Source: an uncultured Clostridia bacterium
Lineage (GTDB): Bacteria; Bacillota; Clostridia; UBA1381; UMGS1253
NCBI GenBank assembly: GCA_934457145.1
Contig: CAKSHP010000009.1
Coordinates: 626 to 64,625 of the forward strand
DNA length: 64,000 nt
Reading direction: 5' to 3'
Positions 4,692 through 25,433 of the stretch are shown here, one piece after another (the first letter of the stretch is position 1; every line of letters starts with the position of its first letter). The notes under the pieces were generated by a model, which was not told the DNA's origin, searched no databases, and was given only the letters and a program-made list of their open reading frames with translations. Made by a program: the position numbers and the translations under genes.

Positions 4692-6431
4692 TTATATTCC
4701 CTCGGGATACTCTTGCTGAATTTCCTGAGGCGTTATAACCTCGGAATCCGGTTTTTGTTCGGTTTCGCCTCCGGCCGGCGCCGAAGGAGCAGGAGTTTGT
4801 TCGGGAGCTGCGGTCGGCTGCGGAGTCTGCGTTGCGGCAGGCGTTGTGCTTGCCGGCGCCGGCCCTACGCGCACAACTTTTTCTGCCATTCTGTACACGC
4901 TTGTTCCGAGTTTTTCTCTTTTTACTTCCGTACCGTTTTTATAGTAAACCTTATAAGTATTAACGCTGCTTCCGTTAAATCCGTTGCTTTCCGACACTCT
5001 CTTTCCCGGAGCCAGCGATGCGTCCGGAATTTCCTTTGTTGTGTAGGGAGTGTAGCTTGTTCTTTCGGTTATAATTTTAACTGTTTTGCTTTTATCTTCA
5101 TTTGTTCCGACAATTTTAACGTTTACAGTTCCGCCGCCTGCCGAGCAAACAACCTTAACAGGATAATTTGTTGTGTTTTTAAATTTGAAATCAAGGCTGT
5201 TCCATGCAACCGTTGCGTCCATCCCCAAAGGCACATAGCTTACCTCCAAAGAGTGGTTATGTCTTTCGACTATTCCCAAATCCGCATACAGCACAGCCGG
5301 ATAAAGAGTTGAGCAGGTTTGGCATATTCCTCCGCCCATGCCGTCTGCAACGCGGTTTGCCTCATACACAGATGCCACCTTAAAACCGCGCCCCGCAGTT
5401 CGCGGGCCGACAGATTCATTATATGAAAATACCTCGCCGGGCAAAAGCGTCTGTCCGTTGATATTTCTTCCCGCCTGTTCAACATTTGCCGAACGGTTTT
5501 TATTTGATGCCGCGTATTTTGAAGAATACTGTCCAAGCACATCAACAAAAAGCTTTGACGAAAGCGCCTGTTTTTTTATTTCTGCCGGAGTCACAATAAT
5601 TTTTATCTTAACATCGGGCGAACCAGGACCAAAACCCTTTAATTTTTCTTCGGCGTCTTTTCTGTCAAGCTCGCGTCCGTCAACTTCGTCTTTAACAACG
5701 ATAGTTCCGTTCTCACGGGCAAACTGAGCATTCTGAACATCCCGTTTAACGGTGTCATACAAAATATCTAAATCTATAGGCTCGGGATCGGTTTCTTTCA
5801 TGGTAACCTTTGCTTCCGTGCTCGAATTGGGCTTAAAGCTTTTTATAACAATCTCTGCCGCTTCATCGGCATGAACGCCGTTTCCTCTTTTGCCGGCTTT
5901 TATTAAAACATAGTCGCTTTCAATTGTAACCTCGTGTTCTTTTAAATCTCCTCCGACAATCACGCCAAACGATTCGATTATGCTTTTTAAAGCCTCTTTA
6001 TCATAATCAAATTCATATCCAACGTCAACTTTTTGCTTGCTTTTAAAAAACCCTGAGGAGTCTTTGCCGTATTTAAATGCTTTTTCGGCAGTTTTATCAA
6101 CATTAAACTTCAGCGATATGTCTTTTGCGTTAATCTTTTCCGTTTCGCTTCTTCCTTCAACTTCGAGCACAACGGAAGATTCGTCAAACGCATCGCTAAG
6201 ACCGCTTAATGCTTCCTTTATCTGATCCAGATTTTTTCCGCCTACATTTATATCTCCTACCATCACGCCGTCCGCCGCTTGTGCCGAATTGCCCCTGTTG
6301 CATGCCGACACCGTGAAAAACACGGCGGCAACAATCACTATAACCGCTGCGGCAACAATAATTCCGACATGGCTTTTTTTCGCCGCTCCCCTTCTGCGTC
6401 TGTTTGTTTTATTCTTTTCAATTTCTGCCAC
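4692..6431 (-). CDS. VanW-family protein with N-terminal membrane anchor, G5 domain and Pro/Thr/Ala-rich tail
   Basis: 579 aa. TM segment IIVAAAVIVIVAAVFF. VanW-like core LLPGEVFSYNESVGPRT...GGGICQTCSTLY. G5-like YTTKEIPDASLAPGKRVSESNGFNGSSVNTYKVYYKNG. Confidence 0.85.
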   Translation of the reverse strand: MAEIEKNKTNRRRRGAAKKSHVGIIVAAAVIVIVAAVFFTVSACNRGNSAQAADGVMVGDINVGGKNLDQIKEALSGLSDAFDESSVVLEVEGRSETEKINAKDISLKFNVDKTAEKAFKYGKDSSGFFKSKQKVDVGYEFDYDKEALKSIIESFGVIVGGDLKEHEVTIESDYVLIKAGKRGNGVHADEAAEIVIKSFKPNSSTEAKVTMKETDPEPIDLDILYDTVKRDVQNAQFARENGTIVVKDEVDGRELDRKDAEEKLKGFGPGSPDVKIKIIVTPAEIKKQALSSKLFVDVLGQYSSKYAASNKNRSANVEQAGRNINGQTLLPGEVFSYNESVGPRTAGRGFKVASVYEANRVADGMGGGICQTCSTLYPAVLYADLGIVERHNHSLEVSYVPLGMDATVAWNSLDFKFKNTTNYPVKVVCSAGGGTVNVKIVGTNEDKSKTVKIITERTSYTPYTTKEIPDASLAPGKRVSESNGFNGSSVNTYKVYYKNGTEVKREKLGTSVYRMAEKVVRVGPAPASTTPAATQTPQPTAAPEQTPAPSAPAGGETEQKPDSEVITPQEIQQEYPEGI

Positions 6432-9898: not shown

Positions 9899-9933
9899 AT
9901 AAATTTATATAAAAACACGTCATTAATTTTGGC

Positions 9934-9971
9934 AAAATTCCGCAGGCTCAAAAGTCTTGCGGAATTTTTTT
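9934..9971 (+). terminator. Rho-independent terminator after the UPF0210 gene
   Basis: AAAATTCCGCA (9934-9944) pairs with TGCGGAATTTT (9958-9968), followed by a T-run. Confidence 0.8.
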
Positions 9972-10118
9972 ATTAAAAATAAAACTTTTTTAATTACAAT
10001 AATTTTGAAAATCTATTGAATTTTTTAAAAAGACGTGATACAATATACTTGCGAAACAAATTGAATTAACAAAATTTGAAATCTCTTTTGCATGGGGGTA
10101 GTATACCCTTTTTTACAA

Positions 10119-10741
10119 TTACCATTTTTGAATTGGTAAAAATGCAAATTCCACTTGGTAATTGTAGGAGATTTTCCTCTTTAGCGTTAAATTTTTCATA
10201 TTGTTAAAAAACATAAATGTTGAAACGCCGTAAAAACTTCTGTTTTTGTCATACATTCCGCTGTTGCCGTAGCCTATTCTTTCGCGGTATGATTCTTCCC
10301 ATGTGCCGCCGTTTATGCTGATGTTAAAATTTTTATTTTCGTCTTTTATCGGCATATGAGTTCCGTCTTTTGTTGTTTCGTTTCTCATTAAAAGAGCCCT
10401 GCATCCCTCGCTTTGGCAAATAACGGCTCCGTCCTGCGCTTCAATTCTTCTGTTTGAGCCTATAATAAGAGAGTTATCTATATAATACTTTTCATCTCTT
10501 TTCGGAATAAAAACAAATTCATGCTCGTCAATAGCTTGTCAATAGCTTTCTGAAAGGCTTTTGTCCATATTTTAATGCCGTTTTTTTCTTCTGCCAGCGA
10601 TTCATATTCAAAAACGGAAACTCTGTCCGTTAAAGCGTCTATAAGCTTAAAATTTCTGTTTTTCATTTCATCTAATGTTTTATATGTTTGTTTTTTGTTA
10701 ATTTTTTTGCACCTTCTGATTTTTTTCTTTGATTTTACCAT
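10119..10741 (-). pseudogene. Right-handed beta-helix glycoside hydrolase-like gene (Pectate_lyase_3/GH28-like N-terminus), frameshifted by an 11-bp tandem duplication and apparently 3'-truncated
   Basis: Track ORFs 10478-10741 and 10119-10388 join into one frame if the duplicated GTCAATAGCTT (10527-10537 and 10538-10548) is reduced to one copy. The joined reading is ...TKAFQKAIDEHEFVFIPKRDEKYYIDNSLIIGSNRRIEAQDGAVI...NISINGGTWE..., a beta-helix hydrolase pattern. Confidence 0.55.
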
Positions 10742-10778
10742 ATTTATATGACTATTTCAAGTCATTTTCATTTTTTTC

Positions 10779-10807
10779 TTGCAAATTGCATGGTTATATG
10801 TTAATAT
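10779..10807 (+). promoter_or_regulatory. Candidate promoter of the GH36 gene (an identical copy lies at 13503-13531)
   Basis: TTGCAA (10779-10784), 17-nt spacer, TAATAT (10802-10807). Confidence 0.5.
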
Positions 10808-10845
10808 ATGCTTGATTTTAATTTTTTTAAAGGAGATTTTAATAT

Positions 10846-13041
10846 ATGGCAATAATATTTGACGAAAAATCCAAAATTTTTAATCTTAAAACAAAAACTT
10901 CATCATACATTTTCAAAATATTGTGTGATAAGGTTTTAATGCATATCCACTACGGAAAAAGAATTGAAAACACAGAGAATATGGATTATCTTTACCGCGA
11001 TTTTACGCATGCTTCGTTTGCGTCTGTTGATAAAGATTTAACCTTTAACGGCCACAATTTTTCAACCGACTCTTTAGAACAGGAATATTCGTTTTTCGGC
11101 AGCTGCGATTTGCGCACTCCCGCTTTTCACGCACAGTATAAAGACGGTTCAACAGTAACAAAAGCATATTATAAATCGCATAAAATATATAACGGCAAGC
11201 CGAAATTATGTGGTCTGCCCGCAACCTATGCAGAAGATGACAGCGAAGTGCAGACTCTTGAAATAACTCTTTTCGACGCTCTTACAAACATGAGCATAAT
11301 TTTATACTACAGCGTTTTTGAAAAGTTTGACGCAATAACAAGAAGCGTTAAGGTTATAAACGGCGGAAAAGACAACATAAACTTAAAATCGGTTCTCAGC
11401 TTCAGCGTTGATTTTCCGAATGATGACTTCGATTTTACCCATCTTTACGGTTCATGGTACCGCGAAAGATATATAGAAAAACGCCCGGTTGCTCACGCAA
11501 ATCTTTCAATCGACAGCAAAAGAGGTTCAAGCAGCCACTACCATAATCCGTTTTTTGCGCTTTCTTCTAAAAATGCAGATGAATTTGCCGGCGATGTGTA
11601 TGGTTTTTCATTGGTATACAGCGGCAATTTCATAGGCGGTGTTGAATGTGACACAACAAACATTGCGCGCGTGTATATGGGAATTAATCCTTTTAATTTT
11701 AACTGGCTTTTAAAAGAAGGCGAAAGTTTTCAGACTCCCGAAGCGGTTATGGTTTATTCCGACTGCGGATTTTCAAAAATGTCTAATATTTATCACACCT
11801 TATACAGAAAGCGCCTTTGCCGCGGCGAGTACCGCGATAAAGTCCGCCCTGTTCTGGCAAACAATTGGGATGCAACCGTTTTTGATTTTGACGAAGATAA
11901 GCTTTTACGCATTGCCGAAAACGCAAAGAAAATAGGCGTTGATTTATTTGTTTTAGACGACGGCTGGTTCGGAAAGAGAAACAATGATAACTGTTCTTTG
12001 GGCGACTGGGTAACAAACACCAAAAAGATCCCCAGCGGTATGGGCGGTCTTGCAAAAAAAATAAACGATTTGGGCATGGAGTTTGGTTTGTGGTTTGAAC
12101 CAGAAATGGTAAGCCCCGACAGCGATTTGTACCGCGCACACCCGGACTGGTGTATTCATGTTAAAAACCGCGACAGAAGCGAAGCAAGAAGTCAGCTTGT
12201 TTTGGATCTTTCAAGAAAAGACGTTTGCGATTATATTGTAAACACTCTTTCCGATGTGCTTTCAAATGCCAACATAACATATGTAAAATGGGATATGAAC
12301 AGAAATATAACCGAACCCGGCTCCGAGCTTTTGCCCCCCGAGCGTCAGATGGAGATATATCACAGATATATTTTGGGACTCTATAACGTGCTTGAACGCT
12401 TAACAACCAAGTTTCCTCATGTTTTGTGGGAGGGATGCAGCGGAGGCGGCGGCAGATTTGATCCCGCACTTTTATACTATTTTCCGCAAAGCTGGGCAAG
12501 CGACAACACAGATGCGTGCGACAGAATATTTATTCAGTACGGCACAAGCCTTGTTATGCCTTGCTCATCAATGGGTTCTCACGTTACATCGGCTCCGAAA
12601 TCAAACGGAAGAATAACTCCTCTTAAAACAAGAGGCAACGTTGCAATGACAGGACAGTTTGGATATGAGCTTGATTTGTCAAAATGCAGCGAAGAAGAAA
12701 TAGAAGAGATGAAAGAGCAGATTGTGTTTTATAAAAAATACCGCCATGTTATTCAAAACGGCGATATGTATCGTTTGCGCAGTCCGTATACAATGAAAAA
12801 CTGTGCGCTTGAGTTTATTTCGGAGGATAAAAACACCGTTATGGTATTTTACTTCACTCTCCACAGATTTGCAAACGATTTTTCAACGCGTCTTACTCTT
12901 CACGGACTTGACAAAACGGCCGTTTATAAAGAAGTTAACTCAAATCTTCTCTACGGCGGAGATATGCTTTTAAATGCAGGAATAAAGGTTCATGACCAAA
13001 AAGATTTCGACAGTTTTGTATTTATTTTTGAAAAACAATAA
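10846..13041 (+). CDS. Alpha-galactosidase, glycoside hydrolase family 36 (copy 1)
   Basis: 731 aa. GH36 signatures are FVLDDGWFGKRNNDNCSLGDW, YVKWDMNR (nucleophile region) and WEGCSGGGGRFD. RBS AAAGGAG lies upstream. Confidence 0.9.
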   Translation: MAIIFDEKSKIFNLKTKTSSYIFKILCDKVLMHIHYGKRIENTENMDYLYRDFTHASFASVDKDLTFNGHNFSTDSLEQEYSFFGSCDLRTPAFHAQYKDGSTVTKAYYKSHKIYNGKPKLCGLPATYAEDDSEVQTLEITLFDALTNMSIILYYSVFEKFDAITRSVKVINGGKDNINLKSVLSFSVDFPNDDFDFTHLYGSWYRERYIEKRPVAHANLSIDSKRGSSSHYHNPFFALSSKNADEFAGDVYGFSLVYSGNFIGGVECDTTNIARVYMGINPFNFNWLLKEGESFQTPEAVMVYSDCGFSKMSNIYHTLYRKRLCRGEYRDKVRPVLANNWDATVFDFDEDKLLRIAENAKKIGVDLFVLDDGWFGKRNNDNCSLGDWVTNTKKIPSGMGGLAKKINDLGMEFGLWFEPEMVSPDSDLYRAHPDWCIHVKNRDRSEARSQLVLDLSRKDVCDYIVNTLSDVLSNANITYVKWDMNRNITEPGSELLPPERQMEIYHRYILGLYNVLERLTTKFPHVLWEGCSGGGGRFDPALLYYFPQSWASDNTDACDRIFIQYGTSLVMPCSSMGSHVTSAPKSNGRITPLKTRGNVAMTGQFGYELDLSKCSEEEIEEMKEQIVFYKKYRHVIQNGDMYRLRSPYTMKNCALEFISEDKNTVMVFYFTLHRFANDFSTRLTLHGLDKTAVYKEVNSNLLYGGDMLLNAGIKVHDQKDFDSFVFIFEKQ

Positions 13042-13064
13042 AAACCGAAAGCGAAGTGATTTTT

Positions 13065-13237
13065 ATGCAGACTGCGCTTAAAAAAAAGCCTGAGTTTAAA
13101 ATTAAATCTGCGTCAAGAGATATATCTCTTGACGCAGTGAAGTTTTTTGCAATCATAGGCGTTTTATTTATACGTTCATGCAATTATTTTTACCCGTGCC
13201 GTTTGTGAACATATATATAACCTTTATTCCGTTAAAG
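13065..13237 (+). pseudogene. Remnant of the acyltransferase-3 gene at the duplication junction (5' 132 bp fused to about 40 bp of internal sequence)
   Basis: 13065-13196 matches 15789-15920 with three substitutions. 13197-13234 matches 16357-16394 with one small indel. The roughly 436 bp between those two intact-gene segments is missing here. Confidence 0.7.
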
Positions 13238-13465
13238 CGGAATAAAAACAATTTCATGCTCGTCAATAGCTTTCTGAAAGGCTTTTGTCCATATTTTAAT
13301 GCCGTTTTTTTCTTCTGCCAGCGATTCATATTCAAAAACGGAAACTCTGTCCGTTAAAGCGTCTATAAGCTTAAAATTTCTGTTTTTCATTTCATCTAAT
13401 GTTTTATATGTTTGTTTTTTGTTAATTTTTTTGCACCTTCTGATTTTTTTCTTTGATTTTACCAT
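13232..13465 (-). pseudogene. Truncated 5' fragment of the beta-helix hydrolase-like gene (duplicate of 10513-10741)
   Basis: The first 68 aa are identical to ORF 10478-10741. The frame then ends at the duplication junction (…AIDEHEIVFIPL*). Confidence 0.7.
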
Positions 13466-15920
13466 ATTTATATGACTATTTCAAGTCATTTTCATTTTTT
13501 TCTTGCAAATTGCATGGTTATATGTTAATATATGCTTGATTTTAATTTTTTTAAAGGAGATTTTAATATATGGCAATAATATTTGACGAAAAATCCAAAA
13601 TTTTTAATCTTAAAACAAAAACTTCATCATACATTTTCAAAATATTGTGTGATAAGGTTTTAATGCATATCCACTACGGAAAAAGAATTGAAAACACAGA
13701 GAATATGGATTATCTTTACCGCGATTTTACGCATGCTTCGTTTGCGTCTGTTGATAAAGATTTAACCTTTAACGGCCACAATTTTTCAACCGACTCTTTA
13801 GAACAGGAATATTCGTTTTTCGGCAGCTGCGATTTGCGCACTCCCGCTTTTCACGCACAGTATAAAGACGGTTCAACAGTAACAAAAGCATATTATAAAT
13901 CGCATAAAATATATAACGGCAAGCCGAAATTATGTGGTCTGCCCGCAACCTATGCAGAAGATGACAGCGAAGTGCAGACTCTTGAAATAACTCTTTTCGA
14001 CGCTCTTACAAACATGAGCATAATTTTATACTACAGCGTTTTTGAAAAGTTTGACGCAATAACAAGAAGCGTTAAGGTTATAAACGGCGGAAAAGACAAC
14101 ATAAACTTAAAATCGGTTCTCAGCTTCAGCGTTGATTTTCCGAATGATGACTTCGATTTTACCCATCTTTACGGTTCATGGTACCGCGAAAGATATATAG
14201 AAAAACGCCCGGTTGCTCACGCAAATCTTTCAATCGACAGCAAAAGAGGTTCAAGCAGCCACTACCATAATCCGTTTTTTGCGCTTTCTTCTAAAAATGC
14301 AGATGAATTTGCCGGCGATGTGTATGGTTTTTCATTGGTATACAGCGGCAATTTCATAGGCGGTGTTGAATGTGACACAACAAACATTGCGCGCGTGTAT
14401 ATGGGAATTAATCCTTTTAATTTTAACTGGCTTTTAAAAGAAGGCGAAAGTTTTCAGACTCCCGAAGCGGTTATGGTTTATTCCGACTGCGGATTTTCAA
14501 AAATGTCTAATATTTATCACACCTTATACAGAAAGCGCCTTTGCCGCGGCGAGTACCGCGATAAAGTCCGCCCTGTTCTGGCAAACAATTGGGATGCAAC
14601 CGTTTTTGATTTTGACGAAGATAAGCTTTTACGCATTGCCGAAAACGCAAAGAAAATAGGCGTTGATTTATTTGTTTTAGACGACGGCTGGTTCGGAAAG
14701 AGAAACAATGATAACTGTTCTTTGGGCGACTGGGTAACAAACACCAAAAAGATCCCCAGCGGTATGGGCGGTCTTGCAAAAAAAATAAACGATTTGGGCA
14801 TGGAGTTTGGTTTGTGGTTTGAACCAGAAATGGTAAGCCCCGACAGCGATTTGTACCGCGCACACCCGGACTGGTGTATTCATGTTAAAAACCGCGACAG
14901 AAGCGAAGCAAGAAGTCAGCTTGTTTTGGATCTTTCAAGAAAAGACGTTTGCGATTATATTGTAAACACTCTTTCCGATGTGCTTTCAAATGCCAACATA
15001 ACATATGTAAAATGGGATATGAACAGAAATATAACCGAACCCGGCTCCGAGCTTTTGCCCCCCGAGCGTCAGATGGAGATATATCACAGATATATTTTGG
15101 GACTCTATAACGTGCTTGAACGCTTAACAACCAAGTTTCCTCATGTTTTGTGGGAGGGATGCAGCGGAGGCGGCGGCAGATTTGATCCCGCACTTTTATA
15201 CTATTTTCCGCAAAGCTGGGCAAGCGACAACACAGATGCGTGCGACAGAATATTTATTCAGTACGGCACAAGCCTTGTTATGCCTTGCTCATCAATGGGT
15301 TCTCACGTTACATCGGCTCCGAAATCAAACGGAAGAATAACTCCTCTTAAAACAAGAGGCAACGTTGCAATGACAGGACAGTTTGGATATGAGCTTGATT
15401 TGTCAAAATGCAGCGAAGAAGAAATAGAAGAGATGAAAGAGCAGATTGTGTTTTATAAAAAATACCGCCATGTTATTCAAAACGGCGATATGTATCGTTT
15501 GCGCAGTCCGTATACAATGAAAAACTGTGCGCTTGAGTTTATTTCGGAGGATAAAAACACCGTTATGGTATTTTACTTCACTCTCCACAGATTTGCAAAC
15601 GATTTTTCAACGCGTCTTACTCTTCACGGACTTGACAAAACGGCCGTTTATAAAGAAGTTAACTCAAATCTTCTCTACGGCGGAGATATGCTTTTAAATG
15701 CAGGAATAAAGGTTCATGACCAAAAAGATTTCGACAGTTTTGTATTTATTTTTGAAAAACAATAAAAACCGAAAGCGAAGTGATTTTTATGCAGACTGCG
15801 CTTAAAAAAAAGCCTGAGTTTAAAATTAAATCTGCGTCAAGAGATATATCTCTTGACGCAGTGAAGTTTTTTGCAATTATAGGCGTTTTATTTATACATT
15901 CATGCAATTATTTTTATCCG
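13238..15920 (+). repeat. Tandem segmental duplication, copy 2
   Basis: See copy 1. The right end of homology is 13196 in copy 1 and 15920 in copy 2. Confidence 0.9.
13570..15765 (+). CDS. Alpha-galactosidase, glycoside hydrolase family 36 (copy 2, protein identical to copy 1)
   Basis: The 731-aa translation is identical to 10846-13041. Confidence 0.9.
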   Translation: MAIIFDEKSKIFNLKTKTSSYIFKILCDKVLMHIHYGKRIENTENMDYLYRDFTHASFASVDKDLTFNGHNFSTDSLEQEYSFFGSCDLRTPAFHAQYKDGSTVTKAYYKSHKIYNGKPKLCGLPATYAEDDSEVQTLEITLFDALTNMSIILYYSVFEKFDAITRSVKVINGGKDNINLKSVLSFSVDFPNDDFDFTHLYGSWYRERYIEKRPVAHANLSIDSKRGSSSHYHNPFFALSSKNADEFAGDVYGFSLVYSGNFIGGVECDTTNIARVYMGINPFNFNWLLKEGESFQTPEAVMVYSDCGFSKMSNIYHTLYRKRLCRGEYRDKVRPVLANNWDATVFDFDEDKLLRIAENAKKIGVDLFVLDDGWFGKRNNDNCSLGDWVTNTKKIPSGMGGLAKKINDLGMEFGLWFEPEMVSPDSDLYRAHPDWCIHVKNRDRSEARSQLVLDLSRKDVCDYIVNTLSDVLSNANITYVKWDMNRNITEPGSELLPPERQMEIYHRYILGLYNVLERLTTKFPHVLWEGCSGGGGRFDPALLYYFPQSWASDNTDACDRIFIQYGTSLVMPCSSMGSHVTSAPKSNGRITPLKTRGNVAMTGQFGYELDLSKCSEEEIEEMKEQIVFYKKYRHVIQNGDMYRLRSPYTMKNCALEFISEDKNTVMVFYFTLHRFANDFSTRLTLHGLDKTAVYKEVNSNLLYGGDMLLNAGIKVHDQKDFDSFVFIFEKQ

Positions 15921-16847
15921 ATTAATTCAGCCGCATGGACAACAAACATATTTTTAAGCTCTGTTTTGCGCTGCGCAGTTCCTTTGTTTTTAATGTGTAG
16001 CGGAGCACTTTTGTTAAACCCGAAAAAACAAATAACATTTAAAGCACTTTTTACAAAATATCTTCTAAGGCTTGTTATTGCAATGTTTTTCTGGGCAGCT
16101 TTCTACAAAGTGCTTGACCTTTATTTCCAAAATAACCTTTCTTATAAGAGCCTTGTAAAAGCAGCAAAAGAAGTTTTAAAGTTTGACCATAAATTTCATA
16201 TGTATTATATGCATATTATAATTTTGGTTTATGTTTTATTGCCGGTTACAAAAGTTTTGGTAAATAACATGAATAAAAAAGAACTTCTCTACACGCTTAT
16301 GGTATGGTTTTTAACCGGAATAATTATTCCGACATTTATATCGCTGAATTTTCTTATGCCGTTTGAACATATATATAACCTTTATTCCGTTAAAATGGCA
16401 TATGCTGCGGTAGGTTACTGCATTTTGGGATACTTTTTAAAAACATACAGTCAAAATAACTTTTTTTATACAGTTTGCGCCGCAGCGGGATTTTTAATTA
16501 TATTTTCCGGCACCGTGCTATGCTCTTTAAAATATAACTTTTTATACACCGAGTTTTTCAACGGATTTTCTCTGGGCGTGTTTTTATCGGCTGTCGGAAT
16601 TTTCGGTATATTAAACAATATTAAAAGCTTTGGAATTTTTAACGGTTTAATAACTTATATTTCAAAGGCCTCGTTTTGTATATACCTTGTCCATGTTGCA
16701 TTTTTAAATTTTACCGATTTCGGATTTTTTTTAAAATTTCCGCAAATCATAGCCGTGCCGTCAAAGGTTTTTATAAATCTTGTTTTAAGCACAGCCGTTT
16801 ATTTTGTAATATCTAAAATACCGGTTGCAAAAAAATATATTATATAA
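15789..16847 (+). CDS. Membrane acyltransferase family 3 protein
   Basis: About 10 predicted hydrophobic segments. The N-terminal DISLDAVKFFAIIGVLFIHS is typical of Acyl_transf_3. ATG 15789 is preferred over the track GTG 15780. Confidence 0.75.
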   Translation: MQTALKKKPEFKIKSASRDISLDAVKFFAIIGVLFIHSCNYFYPINSAAWTTNIFLSSVLRCAVPLFLMCSGALLLNPKKQITFKALFTKYLLRLVIAMFFWAAFYKVLDLYFQNNLSYKSLVKAAKEVLKFDHKFHMYYMHIIILVYVLLPVTKVLVNNMNKKELLYTLMVWFLTGIIIPTFISLNFLMPFEHIYNLYSVKMAYAAVGYCILGYFLKTYSQNNFFYTVCAAAGFLIIFSGTVLCSLKYNFLYTEFFNGFSLGVFLSAVGIFGILNNIKSFGIFNGLITYISKASFCIYLVHVAFLNFTDFGFFLKFPQIIAVPSKVFINLVLSTAVYFVISKIPVAKKYII

Positions 16848-16864
16848 TATTTTGCACAGACTCT

Positions 16865-16913
16865 AAAAAAACTCTTGAAAAACAGGATTAAACCTGATTT
16901 CAAGAGTTTTTTT
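16865..16913. terminator. Bidirectional terminator between the acyltransferase and GH31 genes
   Basis: AAAAAACTCTTGAAA pairs with TTTCAAGAGTTTTTTT, with A-run and T-run flanks. Confidence 0.8.
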
Positions 16914-16918
16914 AATCT

Positions 16919-18439
16919 TTATAATTTTTCAAAATAGGGTATTCTCTCTATAGGAGTGTCTATCTCTATTTCGCAGCCGCCGTCATAAACCGTGCCGTCG
17001 TCTGATTTCCATTTTCCGCCCGGAAGCTTTATTTTCTTTTTCGTCTGATCCTTTACTATAACTGGAGACACAAGGTATTTATCGCCCAACATAAAAGAAT
17101 CTTTAACATTTTCAAAGCCTTCGCCCGAAAATTCATATTCAAGCGCGCGCACTACCGGCTCACCTGTATTAACAGCGTCTTTTGCAAGCTTAAGTATGTA
17201 GTCTTTGAATTTATCGTGAAGCTTTGCAGCCTCAAAGCATAAATCACAATGCTTTTTATCCAAAACTCTCCACGGCGCCGCACTAAACTGCATCATGGGC
17301 ATAAGAGCCGCGCACTGCGCATAGCGGACGAAAAGCTGCTGGTCAACGCCTTTTTCCTTATCCGTAAAATATGAAAACTGTCCGCCGCCTATCATATCGG
17401 AGCAAACATAAGGATATCCCATAAGTCCCTGAGCTATTGTGTCTGCTATTAAAGAATCAATTCCGTTGTCGTCCCATGCAGGTCTTTTGTCGCAAAGTCT
17501 TTGAACAAGCGCAAGGTTTTGCGTGTTAAAAGCGGCGCGAAACTCATTATATTTATATTTTGCGCCGAGCTTTCCGAAAAGCGATGTATAGTGGTTTGCG
17601 GAAGGATATTCTTTATAAAAAGAATAATCGCCGTTATAATACTCACAGTCGCCCGCATCAAATTTAAAACCGTCTATACCGTAATCATCCATCAACCGCT
17701 TATTTTCATCATCATACCATTTAACGGCGTCCGGATTTGAAAAATCAAGTTCTGCGCTGTATCCGTTCCACCATTTTATAACTGCGGCATCTTCCGAGCC
17801 TTTCTTTTTTACCAAAAGCCCTTTTTTCTCAAGGCTTCTGAAAACCTCGCAATCCGGGCTTATAAAAGGAGATGTCCAAAGCATAACCTTAAATCCCATA
17901 TCGTGAAGCATATCAACCATTTTTTTAGGATCTTCAAATCTGTCTGCTCTGAATTTAAAAACTCCGTAGTCCTCCTGCCAGTTATCGTCAATCATCAAAA
18001 TTGCATTGTCTATGCCGAATTCTTTTATCTTTTTTGCATATTCAATTATATCCTTTTGATTTTGGTCATAGATAAGCTCTATCCATGTGTTAAACTGCGG
18101 AGATGTGAAAAATTCGTCTTCAACGCATTTTTCGGGTTTTAAATTCATTATCTCAACAGCTGTTAAATATGCTCCCTTTAAGGTCTTATTTGAGCTCTGA
18201 GCCAATTTTATATCATTTCCGTATAGTTTTATATTTTCTTCTTTTATTTCAAAATCAAAGGGATTTTCGCTGTATATGCATTTTCCCATATTTGTTATCA
18301 AAAACGAAGCACACTGATTTGAATGATTATTTCCGATTGTTTTTCTGCTGTAACCGTTTTTATAAGGCATTTCGTCGCCGTATCTGCTCAATCCGCCCCA
18401 AACATATTCATTTTTTTCAAGCGTGAAAACATATTCCAT
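16919..18439 (-). CDS. Glycoside hydrolase family 31 protein (alpha-glycosidase)
   Basis: GH31-like motifs WWNGYSAELDFSNPDAVKWY and GIDGFKFDAGD. ATG 18439 is preferred because AAGGAG lies 8 nt upstream, and the track start at 18490 would overlap gyrB. Confidence 0.75.
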   Translation of the reverse strand: MEYVFTLEKNEYVWGGLSRYGDEMPYKNGYSRKTIGNNHSNQCASFLITNMGKCIYSENPFDFEIKEENIKLYGNDIKLAQSSNKTLKGAYLTAVEIMNLKPEKCVEDEFFTSPQFNTWIELIYDQNQKDIIEYAKKIKEFGIDNAILMIDDNWQEDYGVFKFRADRFEDPKKMVDMLHDMGFKVMLWTSPFISPDCEVFRSLEKKGLLVKKKGSEDAAVIKWWNGYSAELDFSNPDAVKWYDDENKRLMDDYGIDGFKFDAGDCEYYNGDYSFYKEYPSANHYTSLFGKLGAKYKYNEFRAAFNTQNLALVQRLCDKRPAWDDNGIDSLIADTIAQGLMGYPYVCSDMIGGGQFSYFTDKEKGVDQQLFVRYAQCAALMPMMQFSAAPWRVLDKKHCDLCFEAAKLHDKFKDYILKLAKDAVNTGEPVVRALEYEFSGEGFENVKDSFMLGDKYLVSPVIVKDQTKKKIKLPGGKWKSDDGTVYDGGCEIEIDTPIERIPYFEKL

Positions 18440-18458
18440 ATCTTTTTCTCCTTTAACT

Positions 18459-20384
18459 TTATATATCAAGATTTTGAACAAATTTTGCATTCGTTTCTAT
18501 AAACTCTCTTCTCGGATCAACATTATCTCCCATAAGCACAGTGAACACCTCATCTGCTTTAACCGCATCGTCTAAAGTTACTCTGCGCATTGTTCTTGCC
18601 GATGGATCCATTGTTGTTTCCCAAAGCTGTTTAGATGTCATCTCACCCAAACCTTTGTAACGCTGAACATCGCATTTGCCGCCCATTTCTTCTGTTACTT
18701 TTGTTAAATCGTTATCATTGTAAACATATTTAACCGTTTTTCCTTTTTCAACTTTAAAAAGCGGCGGCTGGGCAAGATATATATATCCTCCCTCAACCAA
18801 AGGACGCATATGACGGAAAAAGAACGTTAAAAGAAGAGTTCTGATATGCGAACCGTCAACATCGGCATCCGCCATTATTATAATTTTATGATATTTAAGC
18901 TTTTCTATATTGAATTCATCGCCAATGCCGGCGCCCAATGCCATTATTATAGGCAAAAGCTTTTCATTTCCGTAAACCTTGTCAAGTCTTGCTTTTTCAA
19001 CGTTAAGCATCTTTCCCCAAAGCGGCAGAATAGCCTGAAAGCTTCTGTCTCTTCCCTGTTTTGCGCTGCCTCCTGCGGAGTCACCCTCAACTATATATAT
19101 TTCATTTTTTTCAGGATCTTTTCCAGAGCATTTTGCAAGTTTTCCCAAAAGCGAGCTGTCGCCCGAAGACGCCGACTTTCTCGTTGCTTCTCTTGCCTTT
19201 CTTGCAGCCTCTCTTGCTCTTGAAGCAGTCAGCGCTTTTTCCAAAATCATTTTTGCAACAATCGGGTTTTCTTCAAGAAAATCTCCGAATTTTTCTGTTA
19301 CAACTCTGTCTACCAGGCCTCTTATTTCGCTGTTTCCGAGCTTTGTTTTTGTCTGTCCTTCAAACTGAGCCTCGGTAACCTTAACGCTTATTACAACCGT
19401 TAATCCCTCTCTGACGTCATCGCCGGAAAGATTTTGGTCTTTTTCTTTTAAAATATTATATTTTCTTGCATAATCATTAAACACTCTTGTGAGCGCAGTT
19501 TTAAAACCTGCCTCATGAGTACCGCCCTCGGTCGTGTTTATGTTATTTGCAAATGTCATAAACGTTTCCGAATAGTTATCGGTATACTGCATTGCTATTT
19601 CAACATATGAGTCGCCCTTCTGACCGTCAAAATATATAACATCGTCATGAATCGGCACTTTTTTGCGGTTTATATGTTTAACAAACTCTCTTATGCCGCC
19701 CTCGTAGTGCATTTTGTTATGAACTTCTTCTTCTCCTCTTAAATCCGTGAACTCAATGTTTAGTCCCGCATTTAAAAATGCCTGTTCGCGAAGGCGCGTT
19801 AATAAAACGTCGTAATCGTAATCAAGCGTTTCAAAAATAGAATTATCCGCCAAAAACGTTACCTTTGTTCCCGTTTTATCCGTGTCGCCTATTATTTTTA
19901 CGCTGCCGCAGCTCTTTCCTCTTTCGTATCTCTGATAATAAACATGCTCGCCGTTTGAAACTTCAACTTCCAGGTATTCCGAAAGCGCATTAACAACCGA
20001 CGAACCAACACCGTGAAGACCGCCGGAAACCTTATATCCCCCGCCGCCGAATTTTCCTCCGGCGTGAAGTATTGTAAACACAACCTCCAAAGTTGAAATT
20101 CCCATTTTAGGATGTATTCCGACAGGTATGCCTCTGCCGTCGTCTATAACCGTAACAACATTACCCGGTTTTAATATAACGTTAATATTTTTGCAGTATC
20201 CTGCAAGAGCCTCATCTATAGCGTTGTCCACTATTTCATACACAAGATGATGCAATCCTCTTATTGATGTTGAACCTATATACATACCCGGTCTTTTTCT
20301 TACAGCCTCAAGACCTTCCAAAACCTGTATCTGGTTTTCATCATAATTGTTTTGTGTTGCGGTTATATTAATTTTGTCATCCAT
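18459..20384 (-). CDS. gyrB: DNA gyrase subunit B
   Basis: [21 protein letters not shown], the Toprim EGDSAGG motif and DADVDGSHI are all present. ATG 20384 is preferred because GGAGGA lies 10 nt upstream. Confidence 0.95.
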
Positions 20385-20419
20385 TTTAACAAAATCCTCC
20401 ATTTTATAATTTACATTTA

Positions 20420-20686
20420 TTAAAATTTATAATCTTTATCATTTGCTCTTTTCAAAATAGTTGATGCCGAAAGAGGCGAAATATAAAGCTTTGTTTTTTT
20501 GTTTTCTTCGCATAAAATATAGCTTTTCGGCAAGTCAAACCTGCTTACGTCTATAACTGCTCCGCTTTTTTGCGATGCCTCCAAAAACTCTCTTGTCCTT
20601 TTCGACATTGATGTGCTTTCAAGGTCAAAAATTGCAACAACTTCTTTTAAAGACACGCAAACGTCGCTTCCGAGATGCAAAAACAT
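20420..20686 (-). CDS. DUF370 (RemB-like) small protein
   Basis: 88 aa. The position between recF and gyrB is conserved in Firmicutes. Pattern ...VVAIFDLES...[10 protein letters not shown]...[12 protein letters not shown]. Confidence 0.7.
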
Positions 20687-20690
20687 TTTT

Positions 20691-21800
20691 TCACCCTTCC
20701 GTTATTTTTCTGTTACAAACATGAAAATACTTAACAAATCCTTTATTTTTAAGATTATTTTCTTTGTCCGTACAGGTTATAATAGTTTGTTTATTATTTA
20801 TGCTGCCGTTTAAATAGCTTCTTCTGTTTTCATCAAGCTCGCTTAAAATATCGTCAAGCAAAATAATCGGATAATCGTTTTTCTCGTTCTTTATAAGCTC
20901 TGAAAGAGCAAGCTTTAAGCTTAAAACAATGCTTCTCATCTGCCCCTGTGAGGCATATCTTCTGACTTCTCTTTTATTTATAAAAAACAAAATATCATCT
21001 TTATGAACTCCTGTTTGCGTAGCGCCTGTTTCTATATCTTTTTTTCTTGTTAAAAAAAGCTTTTCTTCAACGCTCTTTTTTATTTCGGATAAATCGCATC
21101 CGTTTTCAAAATTATCGTAAAAATTGCATAAATACTTTATTTTAAGGCTTTCAGATGATATATCCTTATAAATTTCATACAGATAAACTTTAAGCTGTTT
21201 AAAAAAATTAAATCTGTAAACACATATTCTTGCGCACAAATCAGATAAATAACTGTCCCACACGTCAAGCGTTTCCGTGCCGCATTCGTTTTGATTTATT
21301 CTTTTCAAAAGCGCATTTCTCTGACTTAAAATCTTTAAATATTCGTTTAAAAGTCCGACATAAACCGGCCTTATCTGACTTATTGCCATATCCGTAAAAC
21401 GCCTTCTTTCCGAAGGAAACCCCTTTATCAAAAAAAGATCCTCCGGAGAAAACATAACAACATTTATGTAGTTTGAAATTTCGCTTATTTTTTTTATTTC
21501 GATTTCATTTATGCAAAAAAGCTTTTTTTTATCGTTATAAAGAGAAAAGCTCCCGAAAAAATCTCTGCCGCAACTTTCAAACGACATTTCGATTTTTGCC
21601 ATATTTTTATTTTCGTTTATTAATTCTTTAACCGATGCTCTTCTGTGTGAGCGTCCGGTGCAAAACAAATACACAGCCTCCAAAACGTTTGTTTTCCCGG
21701 CGGCATTTAAGCCGTATATAATATTTGTTTTATCATAAAAGTTAATTTCAGCTTCTTCATAGCAGCGAAAATCGGTGAGCCTTAAGCTTTTTATAAACAT
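20691..21800 (-). CDS. recF: DNA replication and repair protein RecF
   Basis: The N-terminus MFIKSLRLTDFRCYE...GLNAAGKTNVLEAVY contains a Walker A motif. ILLDDILSELD is the Walker B/signature region. Gene order dnaN-yaaA-recF supports the call. Confidence 0.9.
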   Translation of the reverse strand: MFIKSLRLTDFRCYEEAEINFYDKTNIIYGLNAAGKTNVLEAVYLFCTGRSHRRASVKELINENKNMAKIEMSFESCGRDFFGSFSLYNDKKKLFCINEIEIKKISEISNYINVVMFSPEDLFLIKGFPSERRRFTDMAISQIRPVYVGLLNEYLKILSQRNALLKRINQNECGTETLDVWDSYLSDLCARICVYRFNFFKQLKVYLYEIYKDISSESLKIKYLCNFYDNFENGCDLSEIKKSVEEKLFLTRKKDIETGATQTGVHKDDILFFINKREVRRYASQGQMRSIVLSLKLALSELIKNEKNDYPIILLDDILSELDENRRSYLNGSINNKQTIITCTDKENNLKNKGFVKYFHVCNRKITEG

Positions 21801-21801
21801 A

Positions 21802-22026
21802 TTATTTCACCTTTATCAAAAGCGTTTCATCTTCAAATTCTATTTTAACAACATCGTTTGGTCTTATTTTTTTTCCGCGCATTGTGCACACGCTGCCGTT
21901 TACCAAAACAATCTCATCTAAAATCATGTCTTTTGCGTCACTGCCGTTTTCAGCAACACCGCTGAATTTTAAAAGCTGATCAAGTTTTATATATTCAGTA
22001 TTTATTTTAACTTCTTCACTTTGCAT
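21802..22026 (-). CDS. yaaA: S4-domain RNA-binding protein YaaA
   Basis: 74 aa. IKLDQLLKFSGVAENGSDAKDMI...VNG...RGKKIRPNDVV matches the family. It lies between dnaN and recF. Confidence 0.8.
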   Translation of the reverse strand: MQSEEVKINTEYIKLDQLLKFSGVAENGSDAKDMILDEIVLVNGSVCTMRGKKIRPNDVVKIEFEDETLLIKVK

Positions 22027-22052
22027 TTATTTTTCACCTGTTTTCGCAATTT

Positions 22053-23171
22053 TTATTGAGACTGTATATTAATAGGCATAACCATGTATATAAACTCTTC
22101 TCCTTCAACCGGACGAACTATGCATGGGTTTCTTGAAGATATAAAGTCTAACAAAACTTCGCTTTTTTCGCAGTTTCTAAAGACATTATACAAATATCTC
22201 TGATTAAGTCCTATTAAAAGCTCTCCCGATTTTAAAGCATCAGCGTTTATAACATCAGATATTTTTCCTATCTGCGAGCTGCAGTTTACGTTTATTTCAT
22301 CATCTTTTATGTCAAGCTTTAAAGGCGATTTTGCGCTGTCGGCATTAATTATAAGAGCCGCTCTTTCAAGAGAGGATAAAACGTTTGCCGTATCAACCTT
22401 AAGCTCTATTTCAAAATTTTTCTGTTTTTCTATAACGTTTTTATAATTTGTATACTCTCCGTCTCTTAATCTTGACGTTACGGTAAAGTTTTCAAACTCA
22501 AAAAGTATATGCTTTTCGCTGAAATATATTTTAACGTTTAAATCGTCATCGGAAATTATTTTTAAAAGCTCGTTTAATGTTTTTCCCGGAACAATAACTC
22601 TTATGTTTTTGCCGTTTTCCTCTATATTTTCATTTCTTATTGCCATTAAAAATCCATCGGTTGAAACGACAGATATTTTATTGTTTTCTATTTCAAACAA
22701 AGAGCCTGTCCATATAGGTTTTTTATCGTTTGTTGAAATTGCGAAAATTGTTTGCTTTATAAGGCTTTTTAAAACACGCTGATTTATTGTTATGCTGTCG
22801 TTTTTGTTAATCTGAGGAATTTTAGGATATTCGGAAGCGTCTAATCCTAAAATATCAAAATTAACGTTTGAGCATTTTATTTTTGTAACGAATTTATCGT
22901 CTGTTTCAATAAAAACAGGTGCATCGGGAAGTTTTCTTATTATTTCGCCAAACATTCTTGCATTTAAAACAACTTTTCCTTCTTCTATTACCTGAACTGT
23001 ACATTCGTGCTCTATTGCAAGTTCAAGGTCGTTGCCCGTAAGAGTTATTTTATCGTTTTTCGTTTCTATTAAAATTCCTTCCAGAACAGGAAGCGTTGAT
23101 TTTGAAGAAACTGCTTTTGAAACTATATTAACAGCTTCAATTAATATGTTTTTGTCACACAGTATTTTCAT
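22053..23171 (-). CDS. dnaN: DNA polymerase III beta sliding clamp
   Basis: 372 aa. MKILCDKNILIEAVNIVSKAVSSKSTLPVLEGILIE is a typical N-terminus. The position after dnaA supports the call. Confidence 0.9.
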   Translation of the reverse strand: MKILCDKNILIEAVNIVSKAVSSKSTLPVLEGILIETKNDKITLTGNDLELAIEHECTVQVIEEGKVVLNARMFGEIIRKLPDAPVFIETDDKFVTKIKCSNVNFDILGLDASEYPKIPQINKNDSITINQRVLKSLIKQTIFAISTNDKKPIWTGSLFEIENNKISVVSTDGFLMAIRNENIEENGKNIRVIVPGKTLNELLKIISDDDLNVKIYFSEKHILFEFENFTVTSRLRDGEYTNYKNVIEKQKNFEIELKVDTANVLSSLERAALIINADSAKSPLKLDIKDDEINVNCSSQIGKISDVINADALKSGELLIGLNQRYLYNVFRNCEKSEVLLDFISSRNPCIVRPVEGEEFIYMVMPINIQSQ

Positions 23172-23419
23172 AAAGTTTCAGACCTTTCAAAAAAAAATTC
23201 AAAATTATTATAATTATATATAATAAAATAAATATATAATGAATAGTAGTAATAGTAGTAGGTATGTGAAAACAGTGGAAAACGCTTAAAGATGCCGTAT
23301 ACAAAGTGTTTTTCGATGTTAATATATTATTGATAACATAAACGGTTTATCAACATAAATAACATATTGACATTGTTTAGGATAACTTATGCATATTTTC
23401 ACATATTTTTTATGGAAAA
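23172..23419. other. oriC, dnaA-dnaN intergenic part (DnaA boxes, DnaA-trio array, AT-rich unwinding region)
   Basis: Degenerate DnaA boxes TTATCAACA (23347-23355), TGTGAAAAC (23265-23273) and GTGGAAAAC (23275-23283). TAG-trios lie at 23244-23261. A tract of about 40 bp toward dnaN is over 90% AT. Confidence 0.65.
23244..23261. promoter_or_regulatory. DnaA-trio-like array (TAG TAG TAA TAG TAG TAG)
   Basis: Six consecutive trinucleotides, five of them TAG, lie immediately next to two DnaA-box-like 9-mers and next to the AT-rich tract. This is the same order as the Bacillus subtilis basal unwinding system. Confidence 0.5.
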
Positions 23420-24757: not shown

Positions 24758-25082
24758 TTATAAAACCCCTTGCAACAATTTGTAGTGTTAGGCTTATGTT
24801 TAAAAGTTATCCATATAGTTATCCATAAGTGTGGATAACTTTTTTAATTATAAAATAATATTGCCGTTTTACTTAAAGAAACCGAATTTTTTATATTGTG
24901 GATAAAAGTGTGCAAAATATAAGTATAAAGATTTTAAGTAAAACAAAAAAACAATATATTGTGGTTTTTAATTAAATTTGTCAAATTATATTTTAATATG
25001 AAAAATATTAAAAATGAGCCTATACATCTAATATTAATTATATCAAAAATAAAAATATTAATCAAGTGATTTTACAAATTTA
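24758..25082. other. oriC, region upstream of dnaA (DnaA-box cluster plus AT-rich tract)
   Basis: TTATCCATA at 24807-24815 and 24819-24827. Perfect TGTGGATAA (complement of TTATCCACA) at 24830-24838 and 24897-24905. Roughly 150 bp of highly AT-rich sequence follows. Confidence 0.7.
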
Positions 25083-25142
25083 TTGACAAATAAAAAAGCA
25101 CAGTGTATAATTTATATAAAAATAAGAAAGAGGGAGATTATT

Positions 25143-25433
25143 ATGGTAAAGCATATTGTTATATGGAAATTAAAAGATGAAAATAAAAAAGAAAATGCTG
25201 CCGAGATAAAGAAAAGGCTTGAAAATCTTGTCGGCATTGTAAAAGAAATAAAGAGTCTTGAGGTCGGAATTAATTTTAATAGCTCCGATGCCGCATATGA
25301 TTTATGCCTGATTTGCGAGTTTGAAAATGAAGATGATCTTAATTCATATCAGGTAAATGAAAATCATGTTAAGGTAAGTAAATTTGTAAGAAGCGTTATA
25401 ACAGACAGAAAGGTTATAGATTTTAACTTCTAA
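25143..25433 (+). CDS. Dabb (stress-responsive alpha/beta-barrel) domain protein
   Basis: 97 aa. MVKHIVIWKLKD...LVGIVKEIKSLEVGINF...YDLCLICEFENEDDLNSYQVNENHVKV is the Dabb pattern. ATG 25143 has a GAGGGAG RBS. Confidence 0.75.
   Translation: MVKHIVIWKLKDENKKENAAEIKKRLENLVGIVKEIKSLEVGINFNSSDAAYDLCLICEFENEDDLNSYQVNENHVKVSKFVRSVITDRKVIDFNF

Follow-up and report, generated by a model that had tools for sequence, protein, structure and literature searches.

Concerted evolution of duplicated bacterial genes by conversion is known from, for example, tufA/tufB and the rRNA operons (surveyed by Wang & Chen 2018, PMC6053082). Replication template switching of the FoSTeS/MMBIR type has been described (PMC2583991), gene amplification arising from template switching has been reported in yeast (PMC11790251), and a classification scheme for bacterial duplications is available (bioRxiv 10.64898/2026.05.22.727201). 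Most of the documented bacterial cases were selected in the laboratory and are unstable. In bacteria, as work in Salmonella and E. coli has established, tandem duplications are rapidly formed and lost. Strain-level variation in gene copy number reportedly also occurs in gut commensals.

The locus described here, a tandem array of two GH36 alpha-galactosidase genes, touches on each of these systems. It resembles concerted evolution of the tufA/tufB type in that paralogues are closer to each other than orthologues are, and in that a homogenized homologous interior lies between divergent edges. Unlike tufA/tufB and the rRNA operons, however, the GH36 copies are adjacent and direct, so that unequal crossing-over can homogenize them as well as conversion. 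The timescale is also that of a single species rather than hundreds of millions of years, and the gene encodes an accessory glycosidase rather than a core component of translation. With RecA-independent duplications that carry filler at their junction the array shares the absence of a long breakpoint repeat, very short matches at the joints and an insertion templated from close by, whereas its mechanism is read from the scar alone and a two-step route would give the same product. In contrast to the laboratory-selected cases, the array is fixed in natural lineages. As in copy-number variation of gut commensals, a carbohydrate-utilization gene varies among strains of one species across human samples; here the exact junction can be followed at the level of single bases, as can the ancestral allele and the history of conversion. 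Most probably, the locus represents a genuine, inherited 2.7-kb cassette duplication of single illegitimate origin that varies between strains and whose interior has been homogenized by recombination.

The window, i.e. the whole stretch of 64,000 nucleotides that was analyzed, comes from an uncultured human-gut Clostridia bacterium; judged by GyrB, Candidatus Aphodoplasma (86%) is the nearest relative that has a name. Replication meets the GH36 gene head-on, 8–14 kb from oriC. This position next to the origin, proposed in the preliminary description of the sequence, is supported by the presence of gyrB, recF, dnaN and dnaA at 18.4–24.8 kb and by a cumulative GC-skew minimum at 22–26 kb. The features of the locus are as follows.

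10119–10741, minus strand: upstream beta-helix-like gene, a pseudogene in the window genome.
10503–13196, plus strand: duplication unit copy 1, 2694 bp, delimited by repeat search, comparison and single-copy alleles.
10742–10845, plus strand: intergenic region upstream of GH36 copy 1, with a second copy at 13466–13569.
10846–13041, plus strand: GH36 alpha-galactosidase copy 1, 731 aa, intact, with Pfam domains Glyco_hydro_36N, Melibiase and Glyco_hydro_36C.
13065–13208, plus strand: ORF of the acyltransferase 5' remnant, 47 aa; the same 47-aa product is called in L102.
13108–13137, no strand assigned: 30-bp perfect palindrome, a terminator-like hairpin with T-run, with a second copy at 15832–15861.
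13197–13237, plus strand: junction filler, 41 bp, templated from 16355–16394 and common to the window, L002, L094, L102, L092 and L093.
13232–13465, minus strand: 5' end of the beta-helix-like gene, second copy, truncated, a 77-aa ORF ending in the filler.
13238–15920, plus strand: duplication unit copy 2, 2683 bp, without the 11-bp insertion of copy 1.
13570–15765, plus strand: GH36 alpha-galactosidase copy 2, 731 aa, identical to copy 1.
15789–16847, plus strand: Acyl_transf_3 gene, intact, downstream of copy 2; the repeat covers its first 132 bp.
16355–16394, plus strand: filler template inside the acyltransferase gene, about 436 bp beyond the right breakpoint on its downstream side.

Repeat search and base-by-base comparison of the window bore out the earlier observation that the segment 10503–13196 is found again, in direct orientation, at 13238–15920. 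The copies are adjacent and direct and meet at a novel junction, which is missing from a single-copy allele that is continuous across both breakpoints; this identifies a tandem (direct, head-to-tail) segmental duplication. Copy 1 comprises 239 bp from the 5' end of the upstream minus-strand gene, the intergenic promoter region, the first GH36 gene, the hairpin and the initial 132 bp of the acyltransferase ORF. Positions 10538–13153 equal 13262–15877 at every base (2616 bp, offset 2724), so the lack of differences originally noted over 2.2 kb of the GH36 copies holds over a longer tract. An exact repeat of 2.6 kb cannot be due to chance. Every difference between the copies in the window lies no more than 35–43 bp from the unit ends. 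At the right edge there are exactly three mismatches (13154, 13174 and 13193), all within the last 43 bp. These had been described as three substitutions in the acyltransferase remnant; their number and place were exact, but not all of them are changes in the remnant. The G at 13174 is the sole remnant-specific change among the three, and is found in some carriers only. At 13193 the remnant has the allele of the more distant single-copy contigs L004–L011, and the polarity of this site is uncertain since L099 and L100 carry the other allele. The left edge, for which no differences had been listed previously, has one substitution between the copies (10517 A/T) and an 11-bp tandem duplication, GTCAATAGCTT, at 10527–10537 in copy 1 only.

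The GH36 product has the complete three-domain architecture (PF16875, 5.6e-87; PF02065, 1e-159; PF16874, 1.7e-17; all above curated cut-offs), as in AgaA/AgaB of Geobacillus stearothermophilus (PDB 4FNQ, 4FNR), and aligns over its full length to AgaB 4FNQ (E=2.7e-265). The aspartates of the KWD and SD motifs are conserved, with D483 and D553 (...YVKWDMNR..., ...SWASDNTDA...) aligned to AgaB D478 and D548, which are reportedly the catalytic nucleophile and the acid/base, respectively (Merceron et al. 2012). The product is likely a cytoplasmic alpha-galactosidase for melibiose or raffinose-family sugars, although substrate preference (raffinose or melibiose vs transglycosylation) is, relative to AgaA/AgaB, not readable from its sequence. 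All GH36 copies are intact with dN/dS of 0.03–0.2, and both genes of the array are under purifying selection. A search of the genome contigs with the GH36 protein returned only distant GH36 genes of at most 54% identity, with no congener among the matches.

Each unit looks self-sufficient, its intact GH36 gene being preceded by a putative promoter region and a ribosome-binding site and followed by a terminator-like hairpin. A Shine-Dalgarno-like AAAGGAG is located 7 nt before the GH36 ATG, and a weak promoter-like pair, TTGCAA-17-TAATAT, was assigned by sequence inspection and scores below the promoter-scan threshold. The hairpin lies 67 nt after the GH36 stop and 59 nt upstream of the right breakpoint. 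Its predicted RNA fold has an energy of -23 kcal/mol (z = -6.2), and its stem shows a compensatory change in L099 and L100 (13112 G>A with 13133 C>T). An apparent insertion in the promoter region of L102 was rejected as a scaffold mis-join, consisting of N10 and a foreign 221-nt sequence that is repeated at the contig end.

The upstream gene is frameshifted by the 11-bp duplication, removal of which restores a 203-aa ORF equal to that called in single-copy strains, and is furthermore truncated by a deletion of roughly 1 kb relative to L003 and L098–L100. Its initial naming as a beta-helix hydrolase is weakly supported, as the Pfam Beta_helix match (E=0.002) is below the curated cut-off; we therefore refer to it as beta-helix-like. 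The 11-bp insertion occurs in copy 1 of all carriers and in the single-copy contigs L003 and L098, and is absent from copy 2. This pattern is not cleanly explained, and needs either collapse of the array in L003 and L098 or precise loss in copy 2.

A single copy is present in 12 other contigs of the species (L003–L011 and L098–L100). Their alleles align up to 13196 and resume at 13238, which sets the breakpoints exactly. Copy number thus varies among strains, with at least three carrier lineages on one side and many single-copy strains on the other. The same junction, with identical breakpoints and the same TG insertion, was found in five other metagenome assemblies, L002, L094, L102, L092 and L093, the latter two being detected by exact-pattern scan. 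L002, an 86.7-kb contig from a Hadza gut metagenome, is collinear with the window over 22.2 kb at 99.05%, and L094 is a 102-kb scaffold. As all six carriers have the same breakpoints and the same TG insertion, a single origin is indicated. L001 is a 2674-bp Logan contig whose ends, at 10518 and 13192, fall immediately inside 10517 and 13193, two sites that tell the copies apart. This is suggestive of a collapsed repeat, but strain mixtures could give the same ends and L001 was excluded from the carriers.

The junction reads ...CCGTTAAA[T/G]CGGAATAAAAAC. As first proposed, it is not a simple head-to-tail join. The 132-bp acyltransferase piece (13065–13196) is followed by the filler, within which the remnant ORF reaches its stop, and the filler in turn joins 10503, which falls near codon 80 of the upstream gene, read on the minus strand from its start at 10741. 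The proposal that some 40 bp from the middle of the acyltransferase gene had been attached via CCG/GCC microhomology was likewise upheld, with the template now placed at 16355–16394. The filler matches this template except for a 2-bp TG insertion and the last bases, with +TG and -A as small indels. Matches at the joints are limited to 1–3 nt (CCG, T/GG), with the small indels adjoining. No direct repeat was found at the breakpoints, the longest exact match within +/-150 bp in single-copy L004 being 11 nt and off the breakpoints. A homologous-repeat origin (RecA-type, R-D-R-D-R), which needs a direct repeat of at least about 35 bp at the ancestral breakpoints, was rejected on that account. An origin by IS or transposon was rejected as well, since there is no transposase-sized ORF in or beside the unit and no terminal inverted repeats; the only inverted repeat that the repeat search found at the locus was the internal 30-bp palindrome. 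The duplication was accordingly formed by illegitimate recombination without homologous repeats, and the joint, with matches inside the 0–5 nt expected of microhomology and a short templated insertion from nearby, is of the microhomology/template-switch (FoSTeS/MMBIR-like) kind.

Most likely, the junction was made by a double template switch during replication or repair. One breakpoint lies in the downstream acyltransferase gene, within its 5' end, and the other in the upstream beta-helix-like gene, which was already decaying; the filler of about 40 bp inserted at the join has its template 436 bp further downstream. The main competitor, which we rate at somewhat under an even chance, is a simple tandem duplication of 10503–16394, from mid-acyltransferase to the upstream gene, followed by a deletion of about 435 bp between short CCG repeats (15921–16354 equivalent) that left the 132-bp and 40-bp pieces. 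The filler is collinear, in the same orientation and only 436 bp past the right breakpoint, as the product of an internal deletion would be, CCG is present at both deletion ends, and such a deletion would be neutral because the remnant is non-functional. An intermediate with an undeleted remnant of about 600 bp is, however, absent among the 18 loci, although the pattern of the metagenome scan is blind to such an allele, and the +TG and -A of the filler fit error-prone template-switch synthesis at least equally well. Of the original suggestion of a recent amplification followed by a deletion, the sequence of duplication and deletion stays viable beside a double template switch in one step, while the word recent is unsupported.

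Whichever route is taken, the history of the copies after formation can be read from comparison of carriers. Within the interior (10922–12977, 2056 bp) there are no differences between paralogues in the window, L002 or L094, whereas between genomes the window differs from L002 at 33 sites and from L094 at 31, and L002 differs from L094 at 6. At the unit edges the relation is reversed, with orthologous copies differing at 5–10 columns and paralogous copies at 22–37. Paralogues within a genome are hence closer than orthologues between genomes even though the duplication predates their split, which is the signature of concerted evolution. The identical tract has different boundaries in each of the three carriers (10538–13153, 10645–13141 and 10922–12977). 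Recombination between the copies, by gene conversion or by cycles of unequal crossing-over, appears to have homogenized the interior repeatedly. The outer few hundred bp, having homology on one side only, have escaped and still record the age of the duplication. Out of the explanations offered in the preliminary description, gene conversion keeping the GH36 copies identical is the best supported.

It is improbable, though worth weighing, that the duplication is old and real but that its interior identity is overstated through collapse of scattered true differences by short-read assemblers. The contigs are likely draft or MAG contigs, De Bruijn graph assemblers merge near-identical repeats, and a loop walked twice would give identity by construction and smooth isolated differences; the confinement of the window's copy differences to the outermost bases fits such smoothing. 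Against this, L002 phases copy differences that are 55–66 bp of shared sequence apart, up to 420 bp inside the unit; as these were kept and phased, its assembler did not smooth such sites. The three genomes moreover have three different tract boundaries, and the k=141 contigs L095 and L096 (MEGAHIT) break at the innermost differing site of the other assemblies, precisely where the repeat was predicted to branch. L096 matches window 15737–30402 with 100% identity; its terminal 141-mer is present in both copies of the window, but the 142-mer in one place only, and L095 shows the same end behavior relative to L002. L095 and L096 may re-assemble reads of L002 and the window, in which case they are assembler-independent but not sample-independent. 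The collapse caveat applies more weakly to L002 and L094, where well-separated edge differences were kept. True copy number may be two or more, as assemblies alone do not fix it.

Homogenization of an old array is also far preferable to a very recent amplification, of the unstable laboratory type under selection, in which the copies would be identical through youth. The absence of differences over the 2616 bp of the window and the speed at which bacterial tandem duplications form and vanish would suit it, but we give it very little credence, as the junction is common to strains whose flanking genes differ by 0.25–0.5%, the unit edges differ between copies by 15–37 columns with orthologous edges nearer than paralogous ones, and strain-specific interior alleles sit in both copies. 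Independent recurrence would predict differing breakpoints and fillers, in conflict with the uniformity of the six carriers. Two of the 41 positions of the filler itself also distinguish the window lineage from that of L002, L094 and L102. The duplication is old, not recent, and has been inherited since before the carrier lineages split.

Least credible of all is expansion of a single GH36 gene into two by the assembler with a chimeric junction, an artefact that had been raised from the outset and that the probable draft or MAG origin of the window, the perfect interior identity expected from loop traversal and the N10 mis-join in the related scaffold L102 might suggest, but that is rejected for the structure because the idiosyncratic filler with its TG recurs in the five other assemblies, from other samples and pipelines, and is not confined to this one, because the junction has diverged by substitution between lineages where a random chimera would neither recur nor evolve, and because the k=141 contigs break where a true repeat should end them.

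The array exemplifies, cleanly and in nature, a process that is well known and involves no new mechanism or gene family; a literature search for the locus or the species retrieved general background only and no prior account of either. It provides a well-resolved, stable natural duplication in bacteria, in which one can see the ancestral allele, the scar left by formation, the difference in copy number between strains and ongoing homogenization. It also illustrates that, for a draft or MAG contig, a suspiciously perfect tandem repeat can be put to the test even without read data, by looking for the junction elsewhere, for the single-copy allele and for assembler break points. With regard to the organism, a plausible predicted effect is an approximately twofold dosage of alpha-galactosidase near the replication origin, and we infer selection for keeping two copies. 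That the array is maintained by selection on dosage and that one- and two-copy states interconvert in human-gut populations is a tentative and rather doubtful extension. Single-copy L003 and L098 have the left edge of copy 1 and the right edge of copy 2, as collapse of the array would be expected to leave them. If this extension is true, the locus would be a natural, diet-responsive copy-number switch in uncultured Clostridia, the age and conversion dynamics of which are readable at its edges, and if dosage is selected, the copy number of a raffinose/melibiose enzyme would be tied to strain-level adaptation to the gut.

Comparison of the window with itself, by repeat search and base by base, showed that 10538-13153 is identical to 13262-15877 (2616 bp, offset 2724). 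The alignment of the copies confirmed the tandem repeat with a scarred junction reported in the preliminary description, with gapped repeat limits at 10503/13238 on the left and 13196/15920 on the right. The array and its surroundings consist of:

9930-10741, minus strand, upstream gene
10503-13196, copy 1 of the unit
10846-13041, plus strand, first GH36 alpha-galactosidase ORF (731 aa)
13065-13196, plus strand, acyltransferase remnant
13197-13237, filler (41 bp)
13238-15920, copy 2 of the unit
13570-15765, plus strand, second GH36 ORF (731 aa), identical to the first
15789-16847, plus strand, intact acyltransferase gene

Copy 1 stops 132 bp into the acyltransferase ORF and is followed by the filler, which is copied from 16355-16394 in the middle of the acyltransferase gene with a TG insertion. 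On the 3' side of the filler the sequence picks up at the equivalent of 10503, within the upstream gene, which runs on the minus strand from 10741. The three right-edge mismatches described earlier are found at 13154, 13174 and 13193, while differences on the left had been overlooked: A/T at 10517 and, in copy 1, 11 additional bp, GTCAATAGCTT (10527-10537), that form a tandem repeat. The 12-mer TCCGTTAAAGCG at the joint of filler and copy 2 (13228-13239) recurs roughly 125 bp inside each unit (10627-10638 and 13351-13362), which may be coincidence or the trace of a switching event; its equivalent in two other two-copy contigs, L002 and L094, shares only 9 nt.

The window GH36 protein (P0130) is recorded on one contig of 65,015 bp. 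The window is therefore probably part of a draft or MAG assembly, which made the suspicion of an assembly artefact legitimate. Such an artefact was ruled out by the occurrence of the same junction in five other assemblies, by the ends of k141 contigs and by the presence of a single-copy allele in others. L002, an 86.7-kb contig from a Hadza gut metagenome, has this junction with its breakpoints, filler and TG insertion, and aligns collinearly with 22.2 kb of the window at 99.05%. All three features recur in the 102-kb scaffold L094 and in L102, and an exact-pattern scan of a metagenome collection returned two further junction-bearing contigs, L092 and L093. Independent support for the duplication comes from two MEGAHIT k141 contigs that end where the two copies become indistinguishable. 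L096 matches window 15737-30402 at 100%; its terminal 141-mer is found in both copies of the window, but extended by one base to a 142-mer it is unique. L095 relates to L002 in the same way, stopping 141 nt inside the innermost copy-distinguishing site of L002. Two assembly blemishes were observed, namely a GC-rich foreign 221-nt sequence with N10 inserted in L102 at the repeat-unit position where the scaffold ends (2028-2258, 4969-5189), and a terminal Nextera adapter, CTGTCTCTTATACACATCT, in L093 (2504-2523).

Comparison with related strains, as had been proposed, revealed the duplication in some and a single copy in others. Twelve contigs (L003-L011 and L098-L100) have the single-copy arrangement and are continuous across the breakpoints, exactly at 13196 and 13238, meaning that the duplication is a structural difference varying among strains. 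Eight of these (L004-L011), from different samples and studies, share an identical 2682-bp unit (10503-13196 equivalent) in differing flanks, a haplotype that is widespread and apparently clonal at the locus. The single-copy contigs L003 and L098 combine the left edge of copy 1, including the 11-bp insertion, with the right edge of copy 2. Collapse of the array would be expected to give this combination and may have occurred, but by flanking divergence L003 falls outside the two-copy contigs.

The age of the duplication was evaluated from its edges. Over 640 alignment columns, paralogous edges within a genome differ at 15 (window), 22 (L094) and 37 (L002) positions. Between L002 and L094, orthologous copies differ at 5 and 10 positions and paralogous copies at 27 and 32. 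Orthologues being closer than paralogues, the duplication is older than the divergence of these strains. The junction has also evolved since its formation, as the filler differs at 2 of 41 positions between the L002/L094/L102 and window/L092/L093 lineages. The recent amplification considered initially is thus not supported, the junction having been inherited by diverged strains. Nor are the three substitutions of the remnant, although present, simply its decay. At 13193 the remnant has C in common with L004-L011, the more distant single-copy strains, T being found in L099/L100 and in the functional acyltransferase gene of the window clade; at 13154 it is the functional copy of the window that has T, as do L004-L011. 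Only G at 13174 is specific to the remnant, and it is absent from L092/L093.

The interior of the unit (10922-12977, 2056 bp) behaves differently from the edges. Paralogues are identical within the window, L002 and L094 while 33 (window and L002), 31 (window and L094) and 6 (L002 and L094) differences separate the genomes, a comparison that carries the caveat that short-read assemblers can output one collapsed interior twice. Two observations argue against serious smoothing by assemblers: edge variants that lie well apart are kept and phased in L002, and the ends of the k141 contigs agree with that assembly. Strain-specific changes, including apparent imported blocks, appear to have been copied into the interiors of both paralogues. 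Interior identity is thus probably the result of concerted evolution, either by gene conversion, as had been suggested, or by cycles of unequal crossing-over. The boundaries of the identical tract vary by genome (10538-13153, 10645-13141 and 10922-12977), as expected of independent conversion events. None of the GH36 copies is disrupted, and dN/dS is 0.03-0.2. Flanking DUF711, GH31 and gyrB genes differ by 0.25-0.5% between the window and L002/L094, while the GH36 and acyltransferase region (10846-16847) is about 1.6-2% diverged, about 4-8 times as much. This, together with 12 substitutions that L003 and the 2674-bp Logan contig L001 share in a stretch of only 47 bp (11012-11058), suggests recombinational imports at the locus.

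With respect to formation, the joints show matches of 1-3 nt, the CCG microhomology noted previously and T/GG, and the insert was copied from a 40-bp template 436 bp downstream and differs from it by the indels +TG and -A. We give about an even chance to a double template switch during replication or repair that would have inserted the filler. The short joint matches, templated insertion and indels fit FoSTeS/MMBIR-type models (PMC2583991, PMC11790251). A fork might, speculatively, have stalled at the perfect 30-bp palindrome located 59 nt before the right breakpoint. An equally simple two-step route, which we rate somewhat below even, starts with a larger duplication, of 10503-16394, from whose non-functional remnant 435 bp were later deleted; it implies an intermediate junction of uninterrupted 15921-16394 followed by CGGAATAAAAAC. 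Origins through homologous repeats or insertion sequences were ruled out, as the breakpoints of the single-copy allele have no direct repeat (in L004 no match within +/-150 bp exceeds 11 nt, and the longest one lies elsewhere) and no transposase was found.

The upstream gene is decaying stepwise across strains. It is intact in L099/L100 (461-474 aa; L099 19481-20866), broken into three fragments in L003/L098 (L003 8462-9822), cut to 203 aa by a deletion of approximately 1 kb in L004-L011, and in the window truncated with a frameshift from the 11-bp repeat. Its earlier assignment as a beta-helix hydrolase holds only as a weak beta-helix likeness (Pfam E=0.002, under the cut-off).

The duplicated gene is a canonical GH36 alpha-galactosidase matching Pfam Glyco_hydro_36N, Melibiase and Glyco_hydro_36C, with the KWD and SD aspartate positions of Geobacillus AgaB (4FNQ, E=2.7e-265) conserved. 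The enzyme is probably cytoplasmic since a signal peptide is not obvious. Downstream follow the Acyl_transf_3 gene, a minus-strand GH31 gene, gyrB, recF, dnaN and dnaA. These neighbours and a cumulative GC-skew minimum at 22-26 kb support the proposed location next to oriC, and the locus therefore lies 8-14 kb from the probable origin. While dnaA, dnaN, recF, gyrB and GH31 occupy one strand, both GH36 genes and the acyltransferase gene (10846-16847) occupy the other and are thus head-on to a fork leaving the skew minimum near dnaA. L099 (11962-14451), L100 (11962-14451) and L101 (3879-6161) have an additional Glyco_hydro_2_C gene of 760-829 aa between gyrB and GH31 that is missing from the window (equivalent position ~18458), so that the gene content of this origin-proximal glycosidase cluster differs among strains. 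The organism, whose nearest named GyrB relative is Candidatus Aphodoplasma excrementigallinarum (86% identity), is an uncultured Clostridia species of the gut, and gut metagenomes are the source of all related contigs.

In each unit the GH36 ORF is preceded by an intergenic region that has a Shine-Dalgarno sequence and a weak pair of promoter-like elements, below the scan threshold. Each unit also includes a strong terminator-like hairpin (-23 kcal/mol, z = -6.2) with a T-run behind it; in L099/L100 the stem has A-T in place of one G-C pair, through compensatory substitutions (13112 G>A, 13133 C>T). The hairpin palindrome (13108-13137, 15832-15861) falls among the acyltransferase codons for the conserved N-terminal residues SASRDISLDAV, and transcription from the putative GH36 promoter would consequently end within that gene. 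From their sequence, two such self-sufficient units should roughly double the enzyme dosage. Homologous recombination usually removes tandem repeats of this size readily, and persistence of the array in diverged strains thus hints at selection. Overall, the tandem duplication of this alpha-galactosidase cassette is genuine and fairly old; some strains have it and others do not, its junction is illegitimate and contains filler, and its interior shows the pattern of concerted evolution. Concerted evolution in bacteria has been surveyed (PMC6053082), and the array represents an unusually well-documented case of a known kind rather than a new mechanism.
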